IMG/VR virus record: IMGVR_UViG_3300036399_001297
Coordinates: 1-64,000 of that record
Source of the DNA: a virus
Reading direction: 5' to 3' (one strand)
Length of the DNA stretch: 64,000 nucleotides
In this document: positions 6,896-16,904 of the stretch, one piece after another
Layout: every line of letters begins with the position of its first letter
Position numbering within the stretch: position 1 is the stretch's first letter
Program-made: the position numbers and the translations under genes
The notes under the pieces: model-generated
Databases searched by the model: none
What the model was told of the DNA's origin: nothing
The model's input: only the letters and a program-made list of their open reading frames with translations

Positions 6896-7842
6896 AACAA
6901 ATTTTTTAAAATAAAATCATAATCTATTTCATTTAAATCTTTATCCATAGCCATTTCATTAAAATCTTTATACTTTAAAGTTGGCCATTTAAATAATTTT
7001 TCAGAATCATTTAATAGTTTTAATACTTTCTGTTTGGTTTCGTCATCTTTGGTTACTGATATATTATCCAATACCCATATTTTTCTATGAAAAGGAAAAG
7101 TATTAAGTTGTTCTTTTTGGGTTTTTGTTAATGTTAATCCGCAAACAGCAACACCGTTTCTAACAAACATAGAATCTATCGGACCTTCAAATAAAAATAT
7201 ATAATCTATATCAGTATCTATGTTTTCTATTCCAAATATAGTCTTGTCATGACCCATTTTTCCCAAATATCTAGGTTCTGATCCATCTAATGCTCTAGTT
7301 TGATAAAAGACTATTTTATTAGACATGTCATAAAATGGTATAATCAATCTATTTTTATGAACCTTATCGGTAAAACTTATATAATAACTTTTTGATCTAT
7401 TTATGGCGGTATCAAGTTTTCTTTCCTTTATATAATCCAATGCTTTATTAAAAAATTTATTATTTTTATAATATTTTTGTTGTATAGGATCTAATATATT
7501 GATCGAATCGTAAGGTAAAGAAGGAATAATCAATTCCTTTTTAATTTCTACGTTTTTAATTTCAGATGAAAAATCATCATTCTTATTTTCTAATAATATT
7601 TCATCATAAGATTGTCCGGTAATATTAGAAAGCCAATTTATAGCAGACCATGATTTTTGACAATTGAAACAGTATAATGATTGAGTTTTCGGATAATAAA
7701 AAAGTCTTTTCTTTTTACCCCAAGAATTACCTTCTCTACATATCGGACAAGATGCATTATAATTCCCATCATATTTATTAAATGATGGATAGCCCGAATA
7801 GGTATAAAAAGCATTCAGTATATAATTTTCACTTAATGTCAT
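6892..7842 (-). CDS. 61: DNA primase, gp61-like
   Basis: Zn ribbon CPICREG...CFNC, RLIIPFYD, YQTRAL, TOPRIM FEGPIDSMF, KDFNEM. Confidence 0.92.
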   Translation of the reverse strand: MTLSENYILNAFYTYSGYPSFNKYDGNYNASCPICREGNSWGKKKRLFYYPKTQSLYCFNCQKSWSAINWLSNITGQSYDEILLENKNDDFSSEIKNVEIKKELIIPSLPYDSINILDPIQQKYYKNNKFFNKALDYIKERKLDTAINRSKSYYISFTDKVHKNRLIIPFYDMSNKIVFYQTRALDGSEPRYLGKMGHDKTIFGIENIDTDIDYIFLFEGPIDSMFVRNGVAVCGLTLTKTQKEQLNTFPFHRKIWVLDNISVTKDDETKQKVLKLLNDSEKLFKWPTLKYKDFNEMAMDKDLNEIDYDFILKNLF

Positions 7843-7871
7843 TGAGTTGGTATTATGACATTAAGTGAAAA
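7826..7871. repeat. 17-bp perfect inverted repeat covering the primase start codon and promoter spacer
   Basis: ttttcacttaatgtcat (7826-7842) / atgacattaagtgaaaa (7855-7871), 12-nt loop. Confidence 0.9.
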
Positions 7872-7879
7872 AATGTCAA
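7852..7879 (-). promoter_or_regulatory. sigma70-type promoter of the primase gene
   Basis: TTGACA-16 nt-CATAAT-9 nt-ATG. Confidence 0.65.
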
Positions 7880-7882
7880 CTT

Positions 7883-8671
7883 TTATTTATCGAAGTCGTT
7901 ATAATTATCGTCTAACATTCCTTTTTCGCCCCAAGGATCATCCATATCTATACCCAAATCCTTAGCGGTTTCCGGATCAATATCATGAGAAATTGAACTA
8001 TCCGTATTCATAGGATCAATATCTCCTTCTTCGGTATCGGTTCTAAATGCTTCCATCCCATCGTCTTTACTGTCAAATGATTCCGGTGCTTCTAATTCAT
8101 CTAATGACGGGTCTTTAACAGCAATTAATTTACCATTTTCTTCGCCCAATTGACCATCTGAAATCATTTTATTTATGATCTTGTCAACTTCTTCTTCTTC
8201 ATGACCGTATTTAGAAATGTATGCTTTAACTTCTTCTTTTGTAGCAGCTTCATCATCAGATTCGATGATATAATTATAAATATGTTCTTCTACGCTTGAG
8301 ATCGATTTTGTTTGTTCTTCTTGATTGGCTGCATTTTCATCAAATTCTACAAAATATGAATGATCCGGTGTATTTAAAACGTGCCAGAATCTTTTGAATA
8401 ACAATTTTCTTTCGTCTGGTCCTAAGCCTTGATTCAAGAAACCATGATTTATGGTGCTTTCCCATTCAGGTTTGGTTTCTGGTAAATTTCCGGTGGATTG
8501 TACGTGTTGTAATGCTTGTAGATAGAAATTTTTAAAAGGGCTTTTTAGATTTTTTAAATCTTCGGTCAATTTATCTAAGTTTAAAGTAAATTTAGGGTAT
8601 ACTTTTTTCTTTCTTCCTTCGTTGACTGTTACGACTTTTTCAAAAAGAATGTCAAAATTTGTTTTTTTCAT
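7883..8671 (-). CDS. hypothetical late protein with acidic tail
   Basis: 262 aa; TATAAATA just upstream; N-terminus MKKTNFDILFEKVVTVNE. Confidence 0.65.
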   Translation of the reverse strand: MKKTNFDILFEKVVTVNEGRKKKVYPKFTLNLDKLTEDLKNLKSPFKNFYLQALQHVQSTGNLPETKPEWESTINHGFLNQGLGPDERKLLFKRFWHVLNTPDHSYFVEFDENAANQEEQTKSISSVEEHIYNYIIESDDEAATKEEVKAYISKYGHEEEEVDKIINKMISDGQLGEENGKLIAVKDPSLDELEAPESFDSKDDGMEAFRTDTEEGDIDPMNTDSSISHDIDPETAKDLGIDMDDPWGEKGMLDDNYNDFDK

Positions 8672-8695
8672 GGTATTTATAAACTATTTATCTTT

Positions 8696-9358
8696 TTAGG
8701 GTACAATTATTTCTTTTTCTGGCGGCATATATATATCTGACATCAAAGAATCTTCATCTCCATAAGCTTTTCCTTCTTTGGTTATGTATAATTCGGTTAA
8801 TTTTATTCTTTGTTCTGGTGTTCCGTATATCTCAATAAAAGCTGGGCAATCATCTTTTGGAAAAATTTTGCCATCCGACTTTATATATGTCTGTTGAAAA
8901 ATTTTAAAAATTGAATCGATTTCTTCTCTATATTGAGCATTCGTACTTCTCAAACCGTCATTAACAATATCTATAGGATTTTGTTTTGTCAACGGAAAAA
9001 AGAAAATTATATCATACATTCTTAATGTTTCATGTACTATGGTTCTAGTCTTGTCAACAAATTCATCACTTGCTTTTCCGTTTAGATTCAACCAAACAGT
9101 ATATGCTAGATTATCCAAAACGCATCTGTCATAGATTACATTATCATCTTTTGAAAATTCTATAGCTTGATCTACCAAAACGTCAAGAATAATTTTTTGA
9201 GATTCTTCATCGCCTTCTTCATTTATCGTAAGATTTTTTTCTTTGATAATATCCCTGTAGGTCTTTTCGGTGGTTTTATACATCGGCCAATTTTTTAAAA
9301 AATCAGAAATGTAAGTTGTTTTTCCTTGGCAAGCTGTTCCGGTTACGCAGATTTTCAT
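8696..9358 (-). CDS. P-loop nucleotide kinase (AAA_28/NadR-type, thymidylate kinase-like)
   Basis: MKICVTGTACQGKTT, YDRCVLDNLAY, YDIIFF, DGLRS. Confidence 0.8.
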   Translation of the reverse strand: MKICVTGTACQGKTTYISDFLKNWPMYKTTEKTYRDIIKEKNLTINEEGDEESQKIILDVLVDQAIEFSKDDNVIYDRCVLDNLAYTVWLNLNGKASDEFVDKTRTIVHETLRMYDIIFFFPLTKQNPIDIVNDGLRSTNAQYREEIDSIFKIFQQTYIKSDGKIFPKDDCPAFIEIYGTPEQRIKLTELYITKEGKAYGDEDSLMSDIYMPPEKEIIVP

Positions 9359-11878: not shown

Positions 11879-12401
11879 AAGAATTTATTATAGCATTTAA
11901 TATAACCTTTTCAACTATTTCCGGTGAAAGACTACAATTCGCCTGTGAAATACTTTCCTTAAGATCTTTAATATTGTTATATATCTTATTTTGAATTTTA
12001 GATATTTTTATTTTATCTTCAAAGTTAACATTTTCAAAAATAGTTTGTTCTCTTATTAGCAAAGACTCTAAAAAAGGTTCAGATAATTTTTTAATCGAAT
12101 CGGCTATACGTTTATAAAATCTATCTAAAGGAGATTTATACTTTAAATCATTGTTTTGATTTAAAGTTTCGAATAAATGAGTTAATATTGTTGTTTTTTT
12201 TACTTGCTCTTTAATTTTTTGGTACATTATATTTCCTTTTATATGATTGCCTCCGTATGGGTTATATGGACAATTTGAAGACATATTAGGTGAACCACAA
12301 TAAATACATTTATCGTATTCGTCCATATGAGCATGAGCATTTACAGGAGAGTATATACATCCTGATCCATAATTAGATGCTCCGCAATAAACACATTTCA
12401 T
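11862..12401 (-). CDS. hypothetical protein with duplicated CxYCG..C.Y.P..H metal-binding motif
   Basis: KCVYCGASNYGSGCIYSP..H and KCIYCGSPNMSSNCPYNP..H. Confidence 0.65.
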   Translation of the reverse strand: MKCVYCGASNYGSGCIYSPVNAHAHMDEYDKCIYCGSPNMSSNCPYNPYGGNHIKGNIMYQKIKEQVKKTTILTHLFETLNQNNDLKYKSPLDRFYKRIADSIKKLSEPFLESLLIREQTIFENVNFEDKIKISKIQNKIYNNIKDLKESISQANCSLSPEIVEKVILNAIINSCDTNK

Positions 12402-12919
12402 ACTTCTAGTCCTTTATCAAATTTATAAACATTTTTAATTTCTAAAATTTTATTTTTATTATTGTTTAAAAAATTTTCGGCTATTTCTATATTATATTTA
12501 TTATTATATGATAAAAAATTATCTTTTGTCAAGAAATTATATTCTTTCGGGTAACAAACATATGTAGATTTATGGGTTATTTTAAAAAAAAGTAACCAAA
12601 ACGATTTGTTTGTATGTGATGCCTGTGATATCCATTTGTCGAGTATACCACATTTTCCTTCAAACAAAGAATGAAATGGAAAATCTTTATAATTTTTTAC
12701 TTCTATAGAAAAATGAGATAATTCTTCTGGTACTACTATATCTCCTTCATTTAGATCTTGCTGTTCTTTAGTATATTTAGAAAAATTAGAAATATTTTTA
12801 CCTCCAAAAAAAGCACCAGATGTAAAAACTCTCATGAAAGATAACCCAAAACACTCAGAAAGCATATTGCAAACATATTGTTCTCCTCTTTTTCCTTTGT
12901 TTTTATTTTTATTTGGCAT
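12398..12919 (-). CDS. Holliday junction resolvase, Hjc-like PD-(D/E)xK nuclease
   Basis: KNKGKRGEQYV, SGAFFGG, GDIV, SIEVKNY, W..QA. Start placed at MPNKNK (12919), overlapping the upstream stop. Confidence 0.8.
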   Translation of the reverse strand: MPNKNKNKGKRGEQYVCNMLSECFGLSFMRVFTSGAFFGGKNISNFSKYTKEQQDLNEGDIVVPEELSHFSIEVKNYKDFPFHSLFEGKCGILDKWISQASHTNKSFWLLFFKITHKSTYVCYPKEYNFLTKDNFLSYNNKYNIEIAENFLNNNKNKILEIKNVYKFDKGLEV

Positions 12920-13145
12920 TTTTCTTTGATTTTCTTTTTTTATTAGATTTTTTTCCTGTGGCAAAAACAGTCAATTCGGGTGGATTTCTTTTGATAACCT
13001 TACCTAAAACTTTAGGAATTCTGTTGTCTCCAGCAGTTTTATCGGCCCATGATGTAGAAACATCACCAAAAACACTCATAGCGCCTCCAGCGGTATTACT
13101 TTCCATTATTTTTTTATATAGAATGTTAAAATTATTATTTTTCAT
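12909..13145 (-). CDS. small basic late protein
   Basis: TAAGTA 6 nt before ATG; MKNNNFNILYKKIMES; Lys-rich tail. Confidence 0.65.
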   Translation of the reverse strand: MKNNNFNILYKKIMESNTAGGAMSVFGDVSTSWADKTAGDNRIPKVLGKVIKRNPPELTVFATGKKSNKKRKSKKNAK

Positions 13146-13159
13146 TAAATATACTTACA

Positions 13160-13401
13160 TTTTTGGCCTAAAATATTCTAAATGTATTCTAAATATATTA
13201 CAAATATTATTCTATATATTATAAATATAACTTCTAAAACCCGCCCCCCTCCCCTTTAAATTATACTATATTTTTTAAATGTCAAGTATATTCTTAATAA
13301 TTTTAGTTAACAGACAATAAAATATAACAGTATAACAGATAATATTTGTCTAAAACCCACCCACCGCCCTTAAGCTTAATCTGTAATATTTCTTATGTCA
13401 A
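13160..13401 (-). other. candidate replication origin: two tandem promoter + G-tract + T4 units and an AT-rich unwinding region
   Basis: TTGACA..TAAGCT-taa-GGGCGGTGGGTGGG-TTTTAGA and TTGACA..TAATTT-aaa-GGGGAGGGGGGCGGG-TTTTAGA, followed by about 70 nt of nearly pure A/T. Longest intergenic gap in the window. The function is inferred. Confidence 0.55.
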
Positions 13402-13448
13402 TAAAAAAATTTGCATATTTTTAAAAAATGTGATAATATAGTAAATAT

Positions 13449-13844
13449 ATGGATATTTTAGAAGAATATAAAAAAGAAATAACAGAGGATACTAAAATAG
13501 ACCAGATTAATATTTTGGATAAACAGTTGATGCTTCCTTCTATAAAACATAAATGGGTTGCTAGATTGATAGATTCTAAAAAAAACTTAAATAAATTAAA
13601 CAAAAAGAAAAAAGATATTAAAAAATTAGTAGTAGAACAAATTCAAGATAATATACCTAAAAATTTACCAAAAGCCGCGCTTGATCTAAAGATAGAAGGA
13701 TCGGAAAAGGTAAAAGAAATTAACGACGAAATAGAAAAATATGAATTGTTAATAGATTATTTAGAAAAAGTTGAAAAAATATTTTCAAGCATGAGTTTTG
13801 ATTTTAAAACTGCTACTGATTTAATTAAAATGGAAACAACATGA
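13449..13844 (+). CDS. uvsY: recombination mediator UvsY
   Basis: EDTKIDQINI..QLMLPSIKHKWVARL, coiled coil, adjacent to uvsW. Confidence 0.75.
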   Translation: MDILEEYKKEITEDTKIDQINILDKQLMLPSIKHKWVARLIDSKKNLNKLNKKKKDIKKLVVEQIQDNIPKNLPKAALDLKIEGSEKVKEINDEIEKYELLIDYLEKVEKIFSSMSFDFKTATDLIKMETT

Positions 13845-15256
13845 TATCCATAGATTTTTATAACGATAAAAAAAATTTAATGCAAATAGTTTCTGACTCT
13901 GATGAGTTGGAACTTATAAGGCATCATTTTTCGTGTCCAAATCCAGCAGCAATATCTAGAAATAAATTCATACCAAAAAGATTGTATGCGATAACACCAG
14001 CCGGAAAATTTGAATCTGGTTTGTTGGAAGAAATAAAAAAATATCTAATTTCAGAAAATCTAAGGTTTGAAATATCCGAAGACATAAAAAATTCAAAAAT
14101 CGTTTTTAACGCATCTGAAATAGTGCCTATGCATATTCCATATAGGGAATATCAAGAAAACGCGATAGTGACCGCTATAAGAGAAAACAATGGGGTTATT
14201 GTTGTCGGTACTGGTGGTGGAAAAACACTACTGACGGCTGGATTGATTGTAAACTTACGAGAAAATTTAAAAAAACTAAATGCTAAAGTTTTGGTTACGG
14301 TTCCAACGATTCAACTTGTGGAACAAACTGCATCAGATTTTAAAGAATACGGTCTGACGAAAATATCAAAATGGTCGGGTAAAAACAAATTAGATGCTGA
14401 CGCCGAAATTATTGTAGCCGGAACACAATATCTGGTAGGAAAAAATACAGATTTATCTATATTAAACGACATAGATATTTTAATAATGGATGAGTGTCAT
14501 GTACTTAAAAAAAATAACGAAATAAATAATATTTTTAAATTTATAAAAACCCCGTTCAAATTCGGATTAACCGGATCACTACCAGAAGAAAAAATAGACC
14601 AATGGAATATAAACGGTAAACTGGGACCAATAATTTTCGAAAAGAAAACCGACGAACTCAAAAAAGGCGAGTACGTTTCAGACTTCCAAATTTATCTTAT
14701 AGAAATTGATCATGGTAAAACAAATTTTCCGTTTAATCCCAACTCACCTACATCTAAATATGAAAATGAATTAACATATTTGATGACGTGTGAAAAAAGA
14801 AATGATATAATCTCAAAACTGGTTAACAAAATAAATAAAAACACAATTATAATGGTTGATCGCATTTTGCACGGCGAAGAATTGTTAAATAGCCTTAAAA
14901 AAATATGTATCGATTCCCCTGTTTATTTTATACAAGGATCAACCGAAATGGAAGATCGGGAAAAAATAAAAAATTTGATGGAGAACGAAAGTAATGTTAT
15001 AGTTGTTGCAATATCTAAAATATTTTCAACTGGCATAAATATACCAAATCTTCATTCGATTGTTTTTGCATCCGCTGGAAAAGCTAAAATAAAAATAGTA
15101 CAAAGTATAGGACGTGCTTTGCGTTTACATCCTACAAAAGAAAAGGCTTATATTTTTGACATAGCAGATAACACGTATTATGGTAAAATACATAAAGACG
15201 AACGCAAAAAACTTTATAAGGCCGAAAAATATCCATTTATAGAAAAAAACATATGA
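13841..15256 (+). CDS. uvsW: SF2 RNA-DNA/DNA helicase UvsW
   Basis: YREYQ, GTGGGKT, VPTIQLVEQ, MDECH, GLTGSL, FSTGINI, QSIGRALR. Confidence 0.92.
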   Translation: MISIDFYNDKKNLMQIVSDSDELELIRHHFSCPNPAAISRNKFIPKRLYAITPAGKFESGLLEEIKKYLISENLRFEISEDIKNSKIVFNASEIVPMHIPYREYQENAIVTAIRENNGVIVVGTGGGKTLLTAGLIVNLRENLKKLNAKVLVTVPTIQLVEQTASDFKEYGLTKISKWSGKNKLDADAEIIVAGTQYLVGKNTDLSILNDIDILIMDECHVLKKNNEINNIFKFIKTPFKFGLTGSLPEEKIDQWNINGKLGPIIFEKKTDELKKGEYVSDFQIYLIEIDHGKTNFPFNPNSPTSKYENELTYLMTCEKRNDIISKLVNKINKNTIIMVDRILHGEELLNSLKKICIDSPVYFIQGSTEMEDREKIKNLMENESNVIVVAISKIFSTGINIPNLHSIVFASAGKAKIKIVQSIGRALRLHPTKEKAYIFDIADNTYYGKIHKDERKKLYKAEKYPFIEKNI

Positions 15257-15858
15257 GAAGAAAAAAAATTAACCCTGATTTATTGGTAATAGACGATCAA
15301 GCATTGGAAGACATGGAAAGAGAGTTATTACTGGAAAGTGATGATGACAATTCAACTGACTACGATGAAGATGATGATTTTTTAGATTCAGAAGAAGATT
15401 CTGACGAAGATTCTGAAGACATCTCTGAAAATACAGTGAAAACAAAACCGGAAAAGAAAAAAATTTATATAGTGCCAAAGGAATTTGATGATGCTATTAT
15501 GGAATATTATAAAACCGGAAATCTTACAAACCAATTAGCCGAAATGGTTGATAAAATTGCTCAAAAACTTGCTTATGCTCCAAATTTTATTAACTACAGC
15601 TATAGATCTGATATGATAGGTGATGCTATTATAAAAATGATGAAAGCTCTAATTGGTAAAAAATATCAACATAATAAAGGTTCAAATCCATTTTCTTATT
15701 TCACTAGAATAGCATTCAATGCTTATAGAAACCGAATCAAAATAGAAAAAAGAAATCAAGAAATCCATGAAAAATATAAAGAAGAATTGATGATGTTTAG
15801 CGAGCAATATAACACCATAGTAAAAAACAAAAATATAAAGATTAATAACGATAGATGA
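15253..15858 (+). CDS. 55: late-transcription sigma factor gp55
   Basis: KIAQKLAYAPNFINYSYRSDMIGDAI, NPFSYFTRIAFNAYRNRIKIEK. Confidence 0.9.
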   Translation: MRRKKINPDLLVIDDQALEDMERELLLESDDDNSTDYDEDDDFLDSEEDSDEDSEDISENTVKTKPEKKKIYIVPKEFDDAIMEYYKTGNLTNQLAEMVDKIAQKLAYAPNFINYSYRSDMIGDAIIKMMKALIGKKYQHNKGSNPFSYFTRIAFNAYRNRIKIEKRNQEIHEKYKEELMMFSEQYNTIVKNKNIKINNDR

Positions 15859-16904
15859 AACAATTTAAAAGCAATAAGATAGGAATTTTTTCTGATATAC
15901 ACATTGGATTGGGACAGGATAGTTCCATATGGCACGAAATAGTTTTGAATTTTGGTAAATGGGCATCCGAAACTTACAAAAAAAGAGGAATTACCGAAAT
16001 TGTCATACCCGGTGATGTGTTTCATAATAGATCCGAAATCTCCGTAAAAACTCTTGATGTGTGTAAACAGTTCTTTGATTATTTTAAAGATTTTGAATTG
16101 ATTATTTCGGTAGGAAATCATGATGTTTTTAAAAAAAATGCATCTGACATACATTCTCTAAAACTTTTATCAGAGTGGAAAAACATAACTATAATTGATC
16201 TTAAACCTGAAATATATAAAACCGTAAAAAATAAAACTGTTTCTTTTATACCATGGGCAACCGATATAGAAAATTTTCCGGTAACAGATATTTGTTTCGG
16301 TCATTTGGATATACAATCATTTTATATGAATGGTTTGAAATTATGTGATCATGGGTTTGAATCAAAAAATCTTTTCGAAAAATCAAAATATATTATATCT
16401 GGACATTTTCATAAAAAAGAATTTAGAGAATATACGGATGGTAATATTCTTTATGTGGGTAGTCCATTTCAACATAATTTTGGTGATGTTGGAGACGAAA
16501 GAGGAATTTACATTTTCGATTTTGAAAAAAATAATTTTGAATTTATACAAAACACAGAATCACCGACACACAAAAAGATTAAAATATCTGATATATTAGA
16601 TAAAAAAATTAAATCCGAAGATCTTAAAAGAGACGTACCAAACAATTTAATTTGTTTGATAATAGACAAATCTATTACACCTGATGTATATTCAGTATTA
16701 ATATCGAAAATTCAAAATTTAGAGCCTAAAATTTTAAAAATCGAACACGCAGAACCACAAAAAGAATTGAATACTGATGGTAGCGAAGAGTTTGAATTAT
16801 CCGATATATCCAAATCATTAGAAGAATACGTAGATTCTATGGATATTCAAAATAAAAAAGAATTAAAAGATTATATATTAAATATATATGATAATTTAAA
16901 ATAA
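15855..16904 (+). CDS. 47: recombination endonuclease subunit gp47 (SbcD/Mre11)
   Basis: FSDIHIG, GDVFHNR, GNHD, GHL, SGHFH, YVGSP. Confidence 0.93.
   Translation: MKQFKSNKIGIFSDIHIGLGQDSSIWHEIVLNFGKWASETYKKRGITEIVIPGDVFHNRSEISVKTLDVCKQFFDYFKDFELIISVGNHDVFKKNASDIHSLKLLSEWKNITIIDLKPEIYKTVKNKTVSFIPWATDIENFPVTDICFGHLDIQSFYMNGLKLCDHGFESKNLFEKSKYIISGHFHKKEFREYTDGNILYVGSPFQHNFGDVGDERGIYIFDFEKNNFEFIQNTESPTHKKIKISDILDKKIKSEDLKRDVPNNLICLIIDKSITPDVYSVLISKIQNLEPKILKIEHAEPQKELNTDGSEEFELSDISKSLEEYVDSMDIQNKKELKDYILNIYDNLK

Follow-up and report, generated by a model that had tools for sequence, protein, structure and literature searches.

Tandem promoter–G-tract units beside uvsY in an A+T-rich T4-like phage: a candidate transcription-triggered R-loop/G-quadruplex site

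The DNA considered here, which we call the window, is the first 64 kb (64,000 nucleotides) of the linear, 83,004-base virus record IMGVR_UViG_3300036399_001297 of IMG/VR (CheckV completeness 39%; G+C content 29.5%). In it, the gene uvsY and a divergent open reading frame (ORF) of 78 amino acids (aa) are separated by a gap of 303 nucleotides (nt; 13146-13448), and this gap holds, on the minus strand, two units of one design—a TTGACA box, a candidate -10 element, and a strikingly G-rich tract on the nontemplate strand—with A+T-rich DNA after the second. What could such a cassette be for? From what the sequences show, namely how the cassette is built, how rare and how conserved it is and that it recurs near uvsY, we infer a transcription start, an R-loop, a G-quadruplex (G4) and a role in replication or recombination. 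Our preferred account, held tentatively and at something short of even confidence, is that the cassette is a cis-acting, transcription-triggered R-loop/G4 site that would start replication and/or recombination. Read from sequence, the site would be of a known kind (an R-loop-type origin or a transcription-coupled G4 switch), and a G4 leader on an early mRNA is nearly as likely.

The steps that we imagine are simple ones. A host RNA polymerase of the sigma-70 type would start at, or a few bases into, the cluster of nontemplate G-runs, and the G-rich RNA would re-anneal to the C-rich template as an rG:dC hybrid, nucleating an R-loop. The displaced G-rich DNA could then fold into a G4, either by itself or as a hybrid that includes the RNA, while the A+T-only tract downstream would melt readily and let the bubble spread. 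Proteins of the phage replisome or of recombination would use the structure as their entry point. Two genes away is the gene for UvsW, which would be the obvious enzyme for dismantling it later.

Anatomy of the Cassette

Three close relatives, found through protein-anchored searches, help to delimit the units: L005 (UvsW 89% identical), L006 (UvsW 82%) and L036 (UvsY 87%). Unit 1 (minus strand, as are all of the unit features given here) begins with TTGACA at 13396-13401, a box that is kept in L005 and L036 and reads TTGACT in L006. A 17-nt spacer leads to the candidate -10 TAAGCT (13373-13378; three of six consensus bases), at whose place the relatives have TATGCT, TATGAT or TATAGT, and 3 nt beyond it (TAA) comes the nontemplate-strand G-tract GGGCGGTGGGTGGG (13356-13369), with runs of 3, 2, 3 and 3 G, followed by TTTTAGA (13349-13355). 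Unit 2 lies 116 nt away on the same strand: a TTGACA that is invariant in L005, L006 and L036 (13280-13285), a 16-nt spacer, the candidate -10 TAATTT (13258-13263; again three of six, with TGATACTTT or TGATAATTT, extended -10-like, in the relatives), 3 nt (AAA), the G-tract GGGGAGGGGGGCGGG (13240-13254; G4AG6CG3), which is the G-richest 15-mer of the contig, and TTTTAGA once more (13233-13239). A perfect TATAAT is present near unit 2 at 13265-13260, but with a spacer of only 14 nt. An initial annotation of this DNA had given these coordinates, spacers and minus-strand motifs, and on a check of the sequence all of them are right.

Beyond unit 2 is a low-stability, A+T-rich tract (13160-13239, minus strand), a candidate unwinding element, in which 70-nt windows are 86–90% A+T and which, by nearest-neighbor energy over 70 nt, ranks fourth among the least stable regions of the contig (these energies and the G4Hunter-style scores below come from our own versions of the published schemes). 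The stretch 13160-13231 had been called nearly pure A/T; its composition is 86% A+T, so that the wording was too strong although the low stability is real, and it is among 19 regions of the contig that reach 90% in a 70-nt window. Within the tract are about three tandem 11-nt copies (TATTCTAAATN on the plus strand, 13174-13206), which, together with a related AGAATAC/GTATTCT motif that makes up a perfect palindrome in L055, could be an operator or an initiator-binding site. Between the two units, upstream of the unit 2 -35 box, a conserved block at 13306-13335 (minus strand; TACTGTTA ... TCTGTTAAC) has stretches that are invariant in the alignment of the window with L005 and L006 and contains a 12-nt direct repeat at a spacing of 25 nt, making it a possible protein-binding or UP-like element.

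Rarity of the G-Tracts

How unusual are such tracts in DNA of this composition? The highest G count of any 15-mer in the 83,004 bases is the 13 of unit 2, and unit 1, with 11, shares second place with two sites in coding sequence. In 200 first-order Markov simulations of the contig, the maximum G count of any 15-mer was 9–12 and never reached 13 (0/200); regions with at least 11 G numbered four in the contig against a simulated mean of 0.255; and a same-strand pair of such regions no more than 150 nt apart did not arise once in the 200. The earlier description of these G-runs as extreme outliers is borne out by these figures.

The linkage of tract to promoter is particular as well. For the pattern TTGACA-N20-30-GGGNNNNGGG, the two units are the sole matches in the contig (the reversed control gives 0), and among the 18 TTGAC[AT]-N15-18-TAnnnT sites that the contig holds, a G-tract follows in these two alone. 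A looser pattern, GGGNNNGGGTTTTAGA with up to two mismatches, is found twice against 0.96 expected, a result that is not significant alone (at least two in 27 of 100 shuffles). By G4Hunter-style score, unit 2 (2.00) is the top of the contig and unit 1 (1.24) belongs only to the upper group. The unit 2 tract is also the sole match to GGG-N1-3-GGG-N1-3-GGG in the 83-kb record; with both strands counted, the module is the sole such match in seven of seven records (G000-G006, about 240 kb in total).

Conservation Within the Clade

Both units are present in L005 and L036. The unit 1 tract is identical in L036, has one G-to-A change plus a loop change in L005 and is gone from L006, and the unit 2 tract in all three relatives is GGGAGGGGGG(C/T)GGG, the loop base alone varying. 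A profile search with 16 UvsY proteins provided a wider sample of 80 IMG/VR loci (UvsY proteins P0005-P0037, 64–93% identical, were left out of this locus comparison). The distance from uvsY to the small ORF is only 17–61 nt in 75 of them, one could not be scored, and the gap is long in just four: L005, L006 and the near-identical pair L055/L056. Promoter-linked G-tracts within 2.5 kb of uvsY are found, among these 80 loci, in the window's clade only.

L055/L056 have a UvsY 61% identical to that of the window, a G+C content of 34.7% and a single unit: TTGACT, 16 nt, TATTCT, 6 nt and then GGGCGGGAGGGTGGG, which is a canonical G3N1G3N1G3N1G3 with one-base loops. The five genomes with a cassette group together as a single clade in a 29-row UvsY tree (support 100/97), as would fit one gain of the cassette and then, within the subclade of the window, a tandem duplication of 116 nt. 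In an alignment of eight unit copies from the five genomes, no G position varies, and most of the differences are in loop bases; each of the five retains one G-tract or more even as the gap around it has diverged. About 55 nt downstream, every unit has a TTAAGAATA-like motif, which in L055 is a perfect 18-bp palindrome (L055 2352-2376).

Recurrence Outside the Clade

Does the arrangement occur where uvsY was not used to find it? We scanned all of IMG/VR, blind to uvsY, for TTGACA-N22-30-G3N1G3N1G3N1G3 and grouped the matches into families at 75% identity. The scan gave 51 stretches in 30 families, 19 of them not poly-G (L142-L192), whereas a control spacing of N62-70 gave 18 stretches in 14 families, 2 of them not poly-G (L193-L210). 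By eye, several of the 19 are interrelated, which leaves about 15 groups. TAnnnT stands at a 16–18-nt spacer in 10 of the 19 families, with the G4 beginning 0–7 nt later, and the families sit in unrelated phage contigs with G+C contents of 0.33–0.59. One 48-kb contig holds two such sites (L163 and L182), and several contigs of 4–6 kb have two copies each.

Three of the matches are in contigs with a G+C content of 0.33 or less, and two of these three, L142 and L169, come from other, distant T4-like lineages. In L142 (UvsY 29% identical), the module directly follows the small ORF at a distance of some 400 nt from uvsY, has 31 bases of A/T only behind it and precedes a homing-endonuclease-like gene. 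In L169 (UvsY 34% identical), the module is found past the nuclease and w179 homologs, at about 1.7 kb from uvsY, and about 260 nt of noncoding A+T DNA with two 53-nt direct repeats come after it. (These repeats, at L169 8631-8748, are 74% identical at a spacing of 65, an iteron-like arrangement.) Both modules are on the divergent strand, directed away from uvsY, before different genes and with 31–40 nt of 90–97% A+T behind them. A second scan of IMG/VR, for a G4 followed by TA and 13 A/T bases, found seven stretches, four of them poly-G and the others L142 and two contigs of the L055 lineage.

A candidate promoter of the sigma-70 type beside a G-rich motif, with the G strand as the nontemplate strand, is seen in both units and likewise in L055, L142 and L169, and an A+T-rich stretch suited to unwinding follows in the window as in L142 and L169. 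What appears constant across lineages, as far as sequences can tell, is a grammar—promoter, nontemplate G-clusters from about +1 and an A/T-only tract—and not a fixed sequence, a T-run or a particular downstream gene. The tracts of the window, on this comparison, read as degenerate versions of the canonical motif of L055, L142 and L169.

Scans with more specific patterns added little. A TTTTAGA-bearing pattern found six stretches in IMG/VR, one a relative and five unrelated and chance-like (three of these read by eye as coding). The two tract sequences themselves found 11 and 8 stretches, among which the known relatives are the only relevant ones besides L031 and L035. In these two contigs (G+C content 0.33–0.34), AGGGCGGAGGGTGGG comes right after a Bacteroidota-style TAnnTTTG promoter-like box (L035 8880-8950), in a divergent intergenic region with further G-runs, and the site could represent a similar module of an unrelated phage. 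Among 185,579 prokaryote species genomes, TTGACA-N23-29-GGGAGGGGGGNGGGTT has only two matches, both in G+C-richer metagenome-assembled genomes, in unrelated context and attributable to chance.

Weighing the Proposed R-Loop/G4 Site

Why, then, do we favor an R-loop/G4 site? We do so because the grammar of promoter, G-cluster and A+T tract matches the features that favor R-loops, because the contig's main switch from minus- to plus-strand genes and its cumulative AT-skew minimum (at 13308) both fall at the cassette and because no alternative reading in terms of RNA structure fits. On the last point, Rfam (in E-value mode, over 12000-14500) gave three matches with E of at least 2.9, far below gathering and none of them in the gap; a scan of the gap found no hairpin terminator; and the leader RNA from either unit folds no better than its shuffles (z of +0.62 and +1.36). 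A small ORF, or a true Shine–Dalgarno (SD) function for the tracts, was considered and excluded, since no start codon follows the SD-like core. It has also been reported that R-loops initiate more readily when G-clusters stand close to the RNA 5' end, prokaryotic polymerases included (PMC4245955).

A good deal weighs against this reading, and we gather it here. The promoters come with perfect TTGACA boxes and spacers of 16–17 nt, but both -10 hexamers of the window are weak and neither unit was called by a promoter scan; the -10s of the relatives are better. Neither tract has the four runs of at least three G that, with loops of 1–7 nt, define a canonical G4 (unit 1 has runs of 3, 2, 3 and 3; unit 2 of 4, 6 and 3), such motifs being found in L055/L056, L142 and L169, and these degenerate tracts could form a two-tetrad G4 at most. 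With transcription starting at the expected 7 nt past the -10, the G4 model of ViennaRNA gives no RNA-only G4. Mammalian switch-region R-loops collapse at low G-density (PMC4245955), and the DNA past the phage tract is G-poor. L006 has lost the unit 1 tract though it keeps both promoters. The expected conservation in relatives holds in the clade, where all five genomes retain a tract, but not at the 75 of 80 UvsY loci that have no cassette and no G-tract within 2.5 kb, so that most relatives manage without it. Three lineages do share the location near uvsY; they may have inherited module and place from a common ancestor, and the location would then not be independent evidence.

Skew, too, gives a divided answer. 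The AT-skew minimum in the cassette agrees with what an origin would predict, whereas the cumulative GC-skew minimum is at 74962, away from it, and the minima follow gene orientation. Confounded in this way, and with a contig that is 39% complete, GC skew was dropped as evidence on the origin.

Alternatives

The most serious alternative is that the two units are tandem early promoters giving an mRNA with a 5'-terminal, G-rich (G4-forming) leader, which would act at the RNA level on the downstream operon (the small ORF, a PDDEXK/RusA-like nuclease and two unknown genes) and have no role in replication. Such a leader could guard the start of the transcript against 5'-end-dependent RNases, or it could tune translation. 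We regard it as possible, if less than probable, and it explains promoter linkage and conservation nearly as well as the R-loop/G4 site does: that the kept G-clusters abut promoters, that L055 has its canonical motif, that the module is the sole match in its records and that it recurs in a uvsY-blind scan would all be equally expected of an mRNA 5' leader. A conserved operon lies downstream of the units on their own strand and has its ortholog after the L055/L056 unit, the tract position is fixed at about +1 in every unit, and with the whole tract transcribed (and only then) ViennaRNA predicts a two-layer RNA quadruplex of -9.9 to -12.5 kcal/mol. The excess of promoter–G4 families over the control in IMG/VR fits a portable expression device, as does the L142 module ahead of a homing-endonuclease-like gene.

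And yet the three lineages have different genes after the module, which in L169 even lies downstream of the nuclease and w179 homologs, so that there is no common gene for it to serve. Each record has one tract locus, the other TTGACA promoters of the contig having none; the module never strays far from uvsY; no role is obvious, on this reading, for the conserved A+T-only tract or for the repeats past the G4; and an RNA started at the expected position in the window could not fold a G4 alone.

Could the tract instead begin one or two short noncoding RNA genes, whose products would act in trans, as decoys or sponges for a factor that binds G or SD sequences? A promoter of its own stands before each unit, unit 2 holds a GGAGG core, and no start codon is in reach of that SD-like core. 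We think this unlikely, given that the gap has no terminator or other 3' end signal and no hairpin, that there is no fold beyond shuffles, no Rfam match and no conserved sequence besides the tract and that the RNA of unit 1 would run directly into unit 2.

Similarly improbable, in our view, is a function of the DNA itself, with the G+C-rich block at about -3 to +12 serving as an element of promoter kinetics that reads host physiology (GTP supply, supercoiling or the stringent response) or as a duplex protein-binding site. Almost every one of the first 14 or so templated bases is G, and initiation would therefore need high GTP; the tandem units, the conserved flanking blocks and the palindrome-like TTAAGAATAC motif (the perfect 18-bp palindrome of L055) suggest bound regulators. 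What is kept across lineages, however, is a pattern of G-runs with variable loops, the run/loop grammar of a G4, and not a fixed sequence, and both the linkage to uvsY and the A+T-only tract would be left unexplained.

That the tracts have no function at all, being chance G-runs or the scar of a past insertion or tandem duplication, would suit a 303-nt gap that is an insertion relative to most relatives, two units that resemble a 116-nt tandem duplication and the loss of one tract in L006, but it is very improbable when the pair is never reproduced in simulation, the tracts persist over 0.66 changes per column (UvsY tree path) while the flanks become unalignable and the same architecture appears in two more lineages.

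Comparison with Known Systems

With what is the R-loop/G4 site to be compared? ColE1 RNA II is one R-loop system comparable with the cassette. The origins of phage T4 are the obvious place to look, and the likeness there is one of layout. T4 oriE, oriF and oriG lie near switches in the direction of transcription; oriF, which is ori(uvsY), and oriG, which is ori(34), each consist of a promoter for the bacterial polymerase and, within about 100 bp, an easily unwound A+T-rich stretch, and their R-loops prime the leading strand and are unwound by UvsW (PMC3016281). The cassette shares with oriF and oriG the switch in transcription direction, a position 50–200 nt from the uvsY start codon and a UvsW encoded nearby.

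The differences are substantial. The oriF promoter is MotA-dependent (middle mode), whereas the boxes of the cassette are of the sigma-70 type; oriF has no G-tract, and according to PMC3016281 its R-loop needs no specific sequence. The T4 origins and the cassette have no sequence similarity, T4's own origins share no motif, and an origin function of the cassette is putative. The direction differs as well. According to the annotation of the T4 record, the primer RNA of oriF is the uvsY transcript, running into uvsY; both units of the cassette point away from uvsY, and transcription from them leaves that gene behind. The parallel with T4 ori(uvsY) in the initial annotation is weakened by this difference in the priming RNA.

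Among bacteria, the pilE G4 of Neisseria gonorrhoeae, with its cis-acting small RNA promoter (gar), is by analogy the closest parallel. There a sigma-70 promoter, with -35 and -10 boxes adjoining a short-loop G4 motif whose G strand is the nontemplate strand, is needed for recombination and has its starts inside the G4 motif, acting via an RNA:DNA hybrid on the C-rich strand; in the model for pilE, the hybrid frees the G strand to fold and so leads to RecA-dependent recombination with processing by RecG and Ruv (PMC3547852). Near the cassette, the phage counterparts of these partners would be UvsY, UvsW and the RusA/PDDEXK-type nuclease. The pilE site differs in belonging to a bacterial chromosome, as a single locus for pilin gene conversion, and in that it has no replication role and, as described, no A+T unwinding tract. 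Its starts are mapped, whereas the phage start is only predicted from the -10 and the tracts in the window are noncanonical.

The initial annotation had also made a comparison with mitochondria; in those of humans, the light-strand promoter and conserved sequence block 2 (LSP-CSB 2, its CSB II) offer a tract of the form G-run/A/G-run, likewise on the nontemplate strand and downstream of a promoter. At CSB 2, formation of a G4 or hybrid G4 is tied to primer formation (PMC5027508; PMC3488243; PMC4176368), and unit 2, with its 13 G, falls within the 12–15 G range of common CSB 2 variants; unit 1 has 11, and variants with 8–11 G gave no extra termination (PMC5027508). But at CSB 2 the tract is far removed from the promoter, on its downstream side, and the polymerase is a T7-like enzyme of one subunit, whereas the phage tract is at about +1 and a multisubunit polymerase would be expected; and CSB 2 termination comes 16–23 nt past the tract at a run of six T (PMC5027508), whereas the phage T-run directly abuts its tract.

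Judged as a primer terminator of the CSB 2 type, unit 2 has a suitable composition, and L055, L142 and L169 lack the T-run. TTTTAGA, with its four T, had been noted as kept in both units; beyond the window it is confined to the closest relatives, the other lineages carrying TATAAATA, TAATATAT or AATAATAT after the G4, so that termination at a T-run in the manner of CSB II is not supported as the conserved feature. The specific analogy with CSB II is weak.

The R-loop initiation zones of immunoglobulin switch regions have been likened to the R-loops of prokaryotic origins (PMC4245955), but switch regions need a long, G-dense elongation zone, and the DNA downstream of the phage tracts is G-poor and A+T-rich.

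What the Cassette Would Mean

In the literature searched, we found no paper that links quadruplexes with uvsY or with T4-like origins and, among the titles listed, nothing on promoter–G4 modules of phages. Should the R-loop/G4 site prove true, it would be, as far as that literature shows, the first promoter-coupled G4 of a phage with a role in genome maintenance, and it would provide a natural module whose sequence (G-runs at +1 plus an A+T tract) is sharply defined and mutable and so open to direct tests. One may go further, and with greater doubt: A+T-rich, T4-like phages of lakes may repeatedly place a G4-anchored R-loop origin or recombination initiator in the uvsY region, where the quadruplex-type 5' end of a sigma-70 RNA would lock onto its template and the A+T tract would open for the replisome—a counterpart of LSP-CSB 2 and of pilE—and starts that join promoter and G4 may serve phages in general as a means to convert transcription into a signal of DNA structure. 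Even if the G4 acts only as an RNA leader, many unrelated phage contigs have sigma-70-type promoters with a canonical G4 motif just behind, an undescribed pattern that merits a survey.

Gene Setting and Further Observations

The gap that holds the cassette had been described as the longest noncoding one, and on a crude ORF map it is, but only when the 78-aa ORF is accepted; the runner-up measures 289 nt. To one side, uvsY (13449-13844, plus strand; PHROG phrog_231 at 2.7e-10 and Pfam UvsY at 29 bits) opens a plus-strand series with a T4-like gene order: the UvsY-like mediator, a UvsW-type helicase (13841-15256, plus strand), a gp55-like late sigma factor and a gp47/SbcD-like nuclease. Of the two genes named earlier as immediate neighbors of the cassette, uvsY is one, and uvsW lies one gene further. 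A promoter scan places a candidate uvsY promoter (TTTGCA-16 nt-GATAAT with TG; 13410-13437, plus strand) back to back with unit 1, and it would give a leader of just a few bases ahead of the uvsY ATG.

To the other side, the minus-strand genes are directed away from uvsY, and the 78-aa ORF (12909-13145, minus strand), conserved and with no family match, is the first gene downstream of the cassette; its homologs adjoin uvsY in nearly all relatives. A different downstream gene in L055/L056 was considered and rejected, since their operon is the ortholog of the window's and its small ORF holds an inserted enzyme. In that lineage, the small ORF is a 554-aa protein (L141, G004:12000-28000, 7384-9048, plus strand) with a small-ORF-like N-terminus and then the PolyA_pol head, RNA-binding and HD domains of a CCA-adding-enzyme type, and the body of the 78-aa protein corresponds to its residues 484-537 (51% identity over 55 aa).

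Phages in GenBank have no blastn match to 12000-16000. The best cultured relatives, by tblastn of UvsW, are T4-like cyanophages at 30–36% identity, for which reason there is neither a cultured model nor a host assignment. The locus, in part or whole, is present in 20 public runs, all of them DNA and from lake or freshwater metagenomes. Contigs assembled from four public runs stop at or around the unit 2 G-tract (13226-13299), one with a loose pure-G end, which is probably trouble in sequencing or assembly and not biology; the unit 1 tract is unchanged in the contigs of three public runs.

Last, homing-endonuclease-like genes adjoin the module or its operon in two lineages. A stretch of L222 (3507-3965, minus strand) matches PHROG homing-endonuclease families, a GIY-YIG-like motif can be seen by eye in L141 (9087-9833, plus strand), and in the T4 record segE stands beside uvsW.

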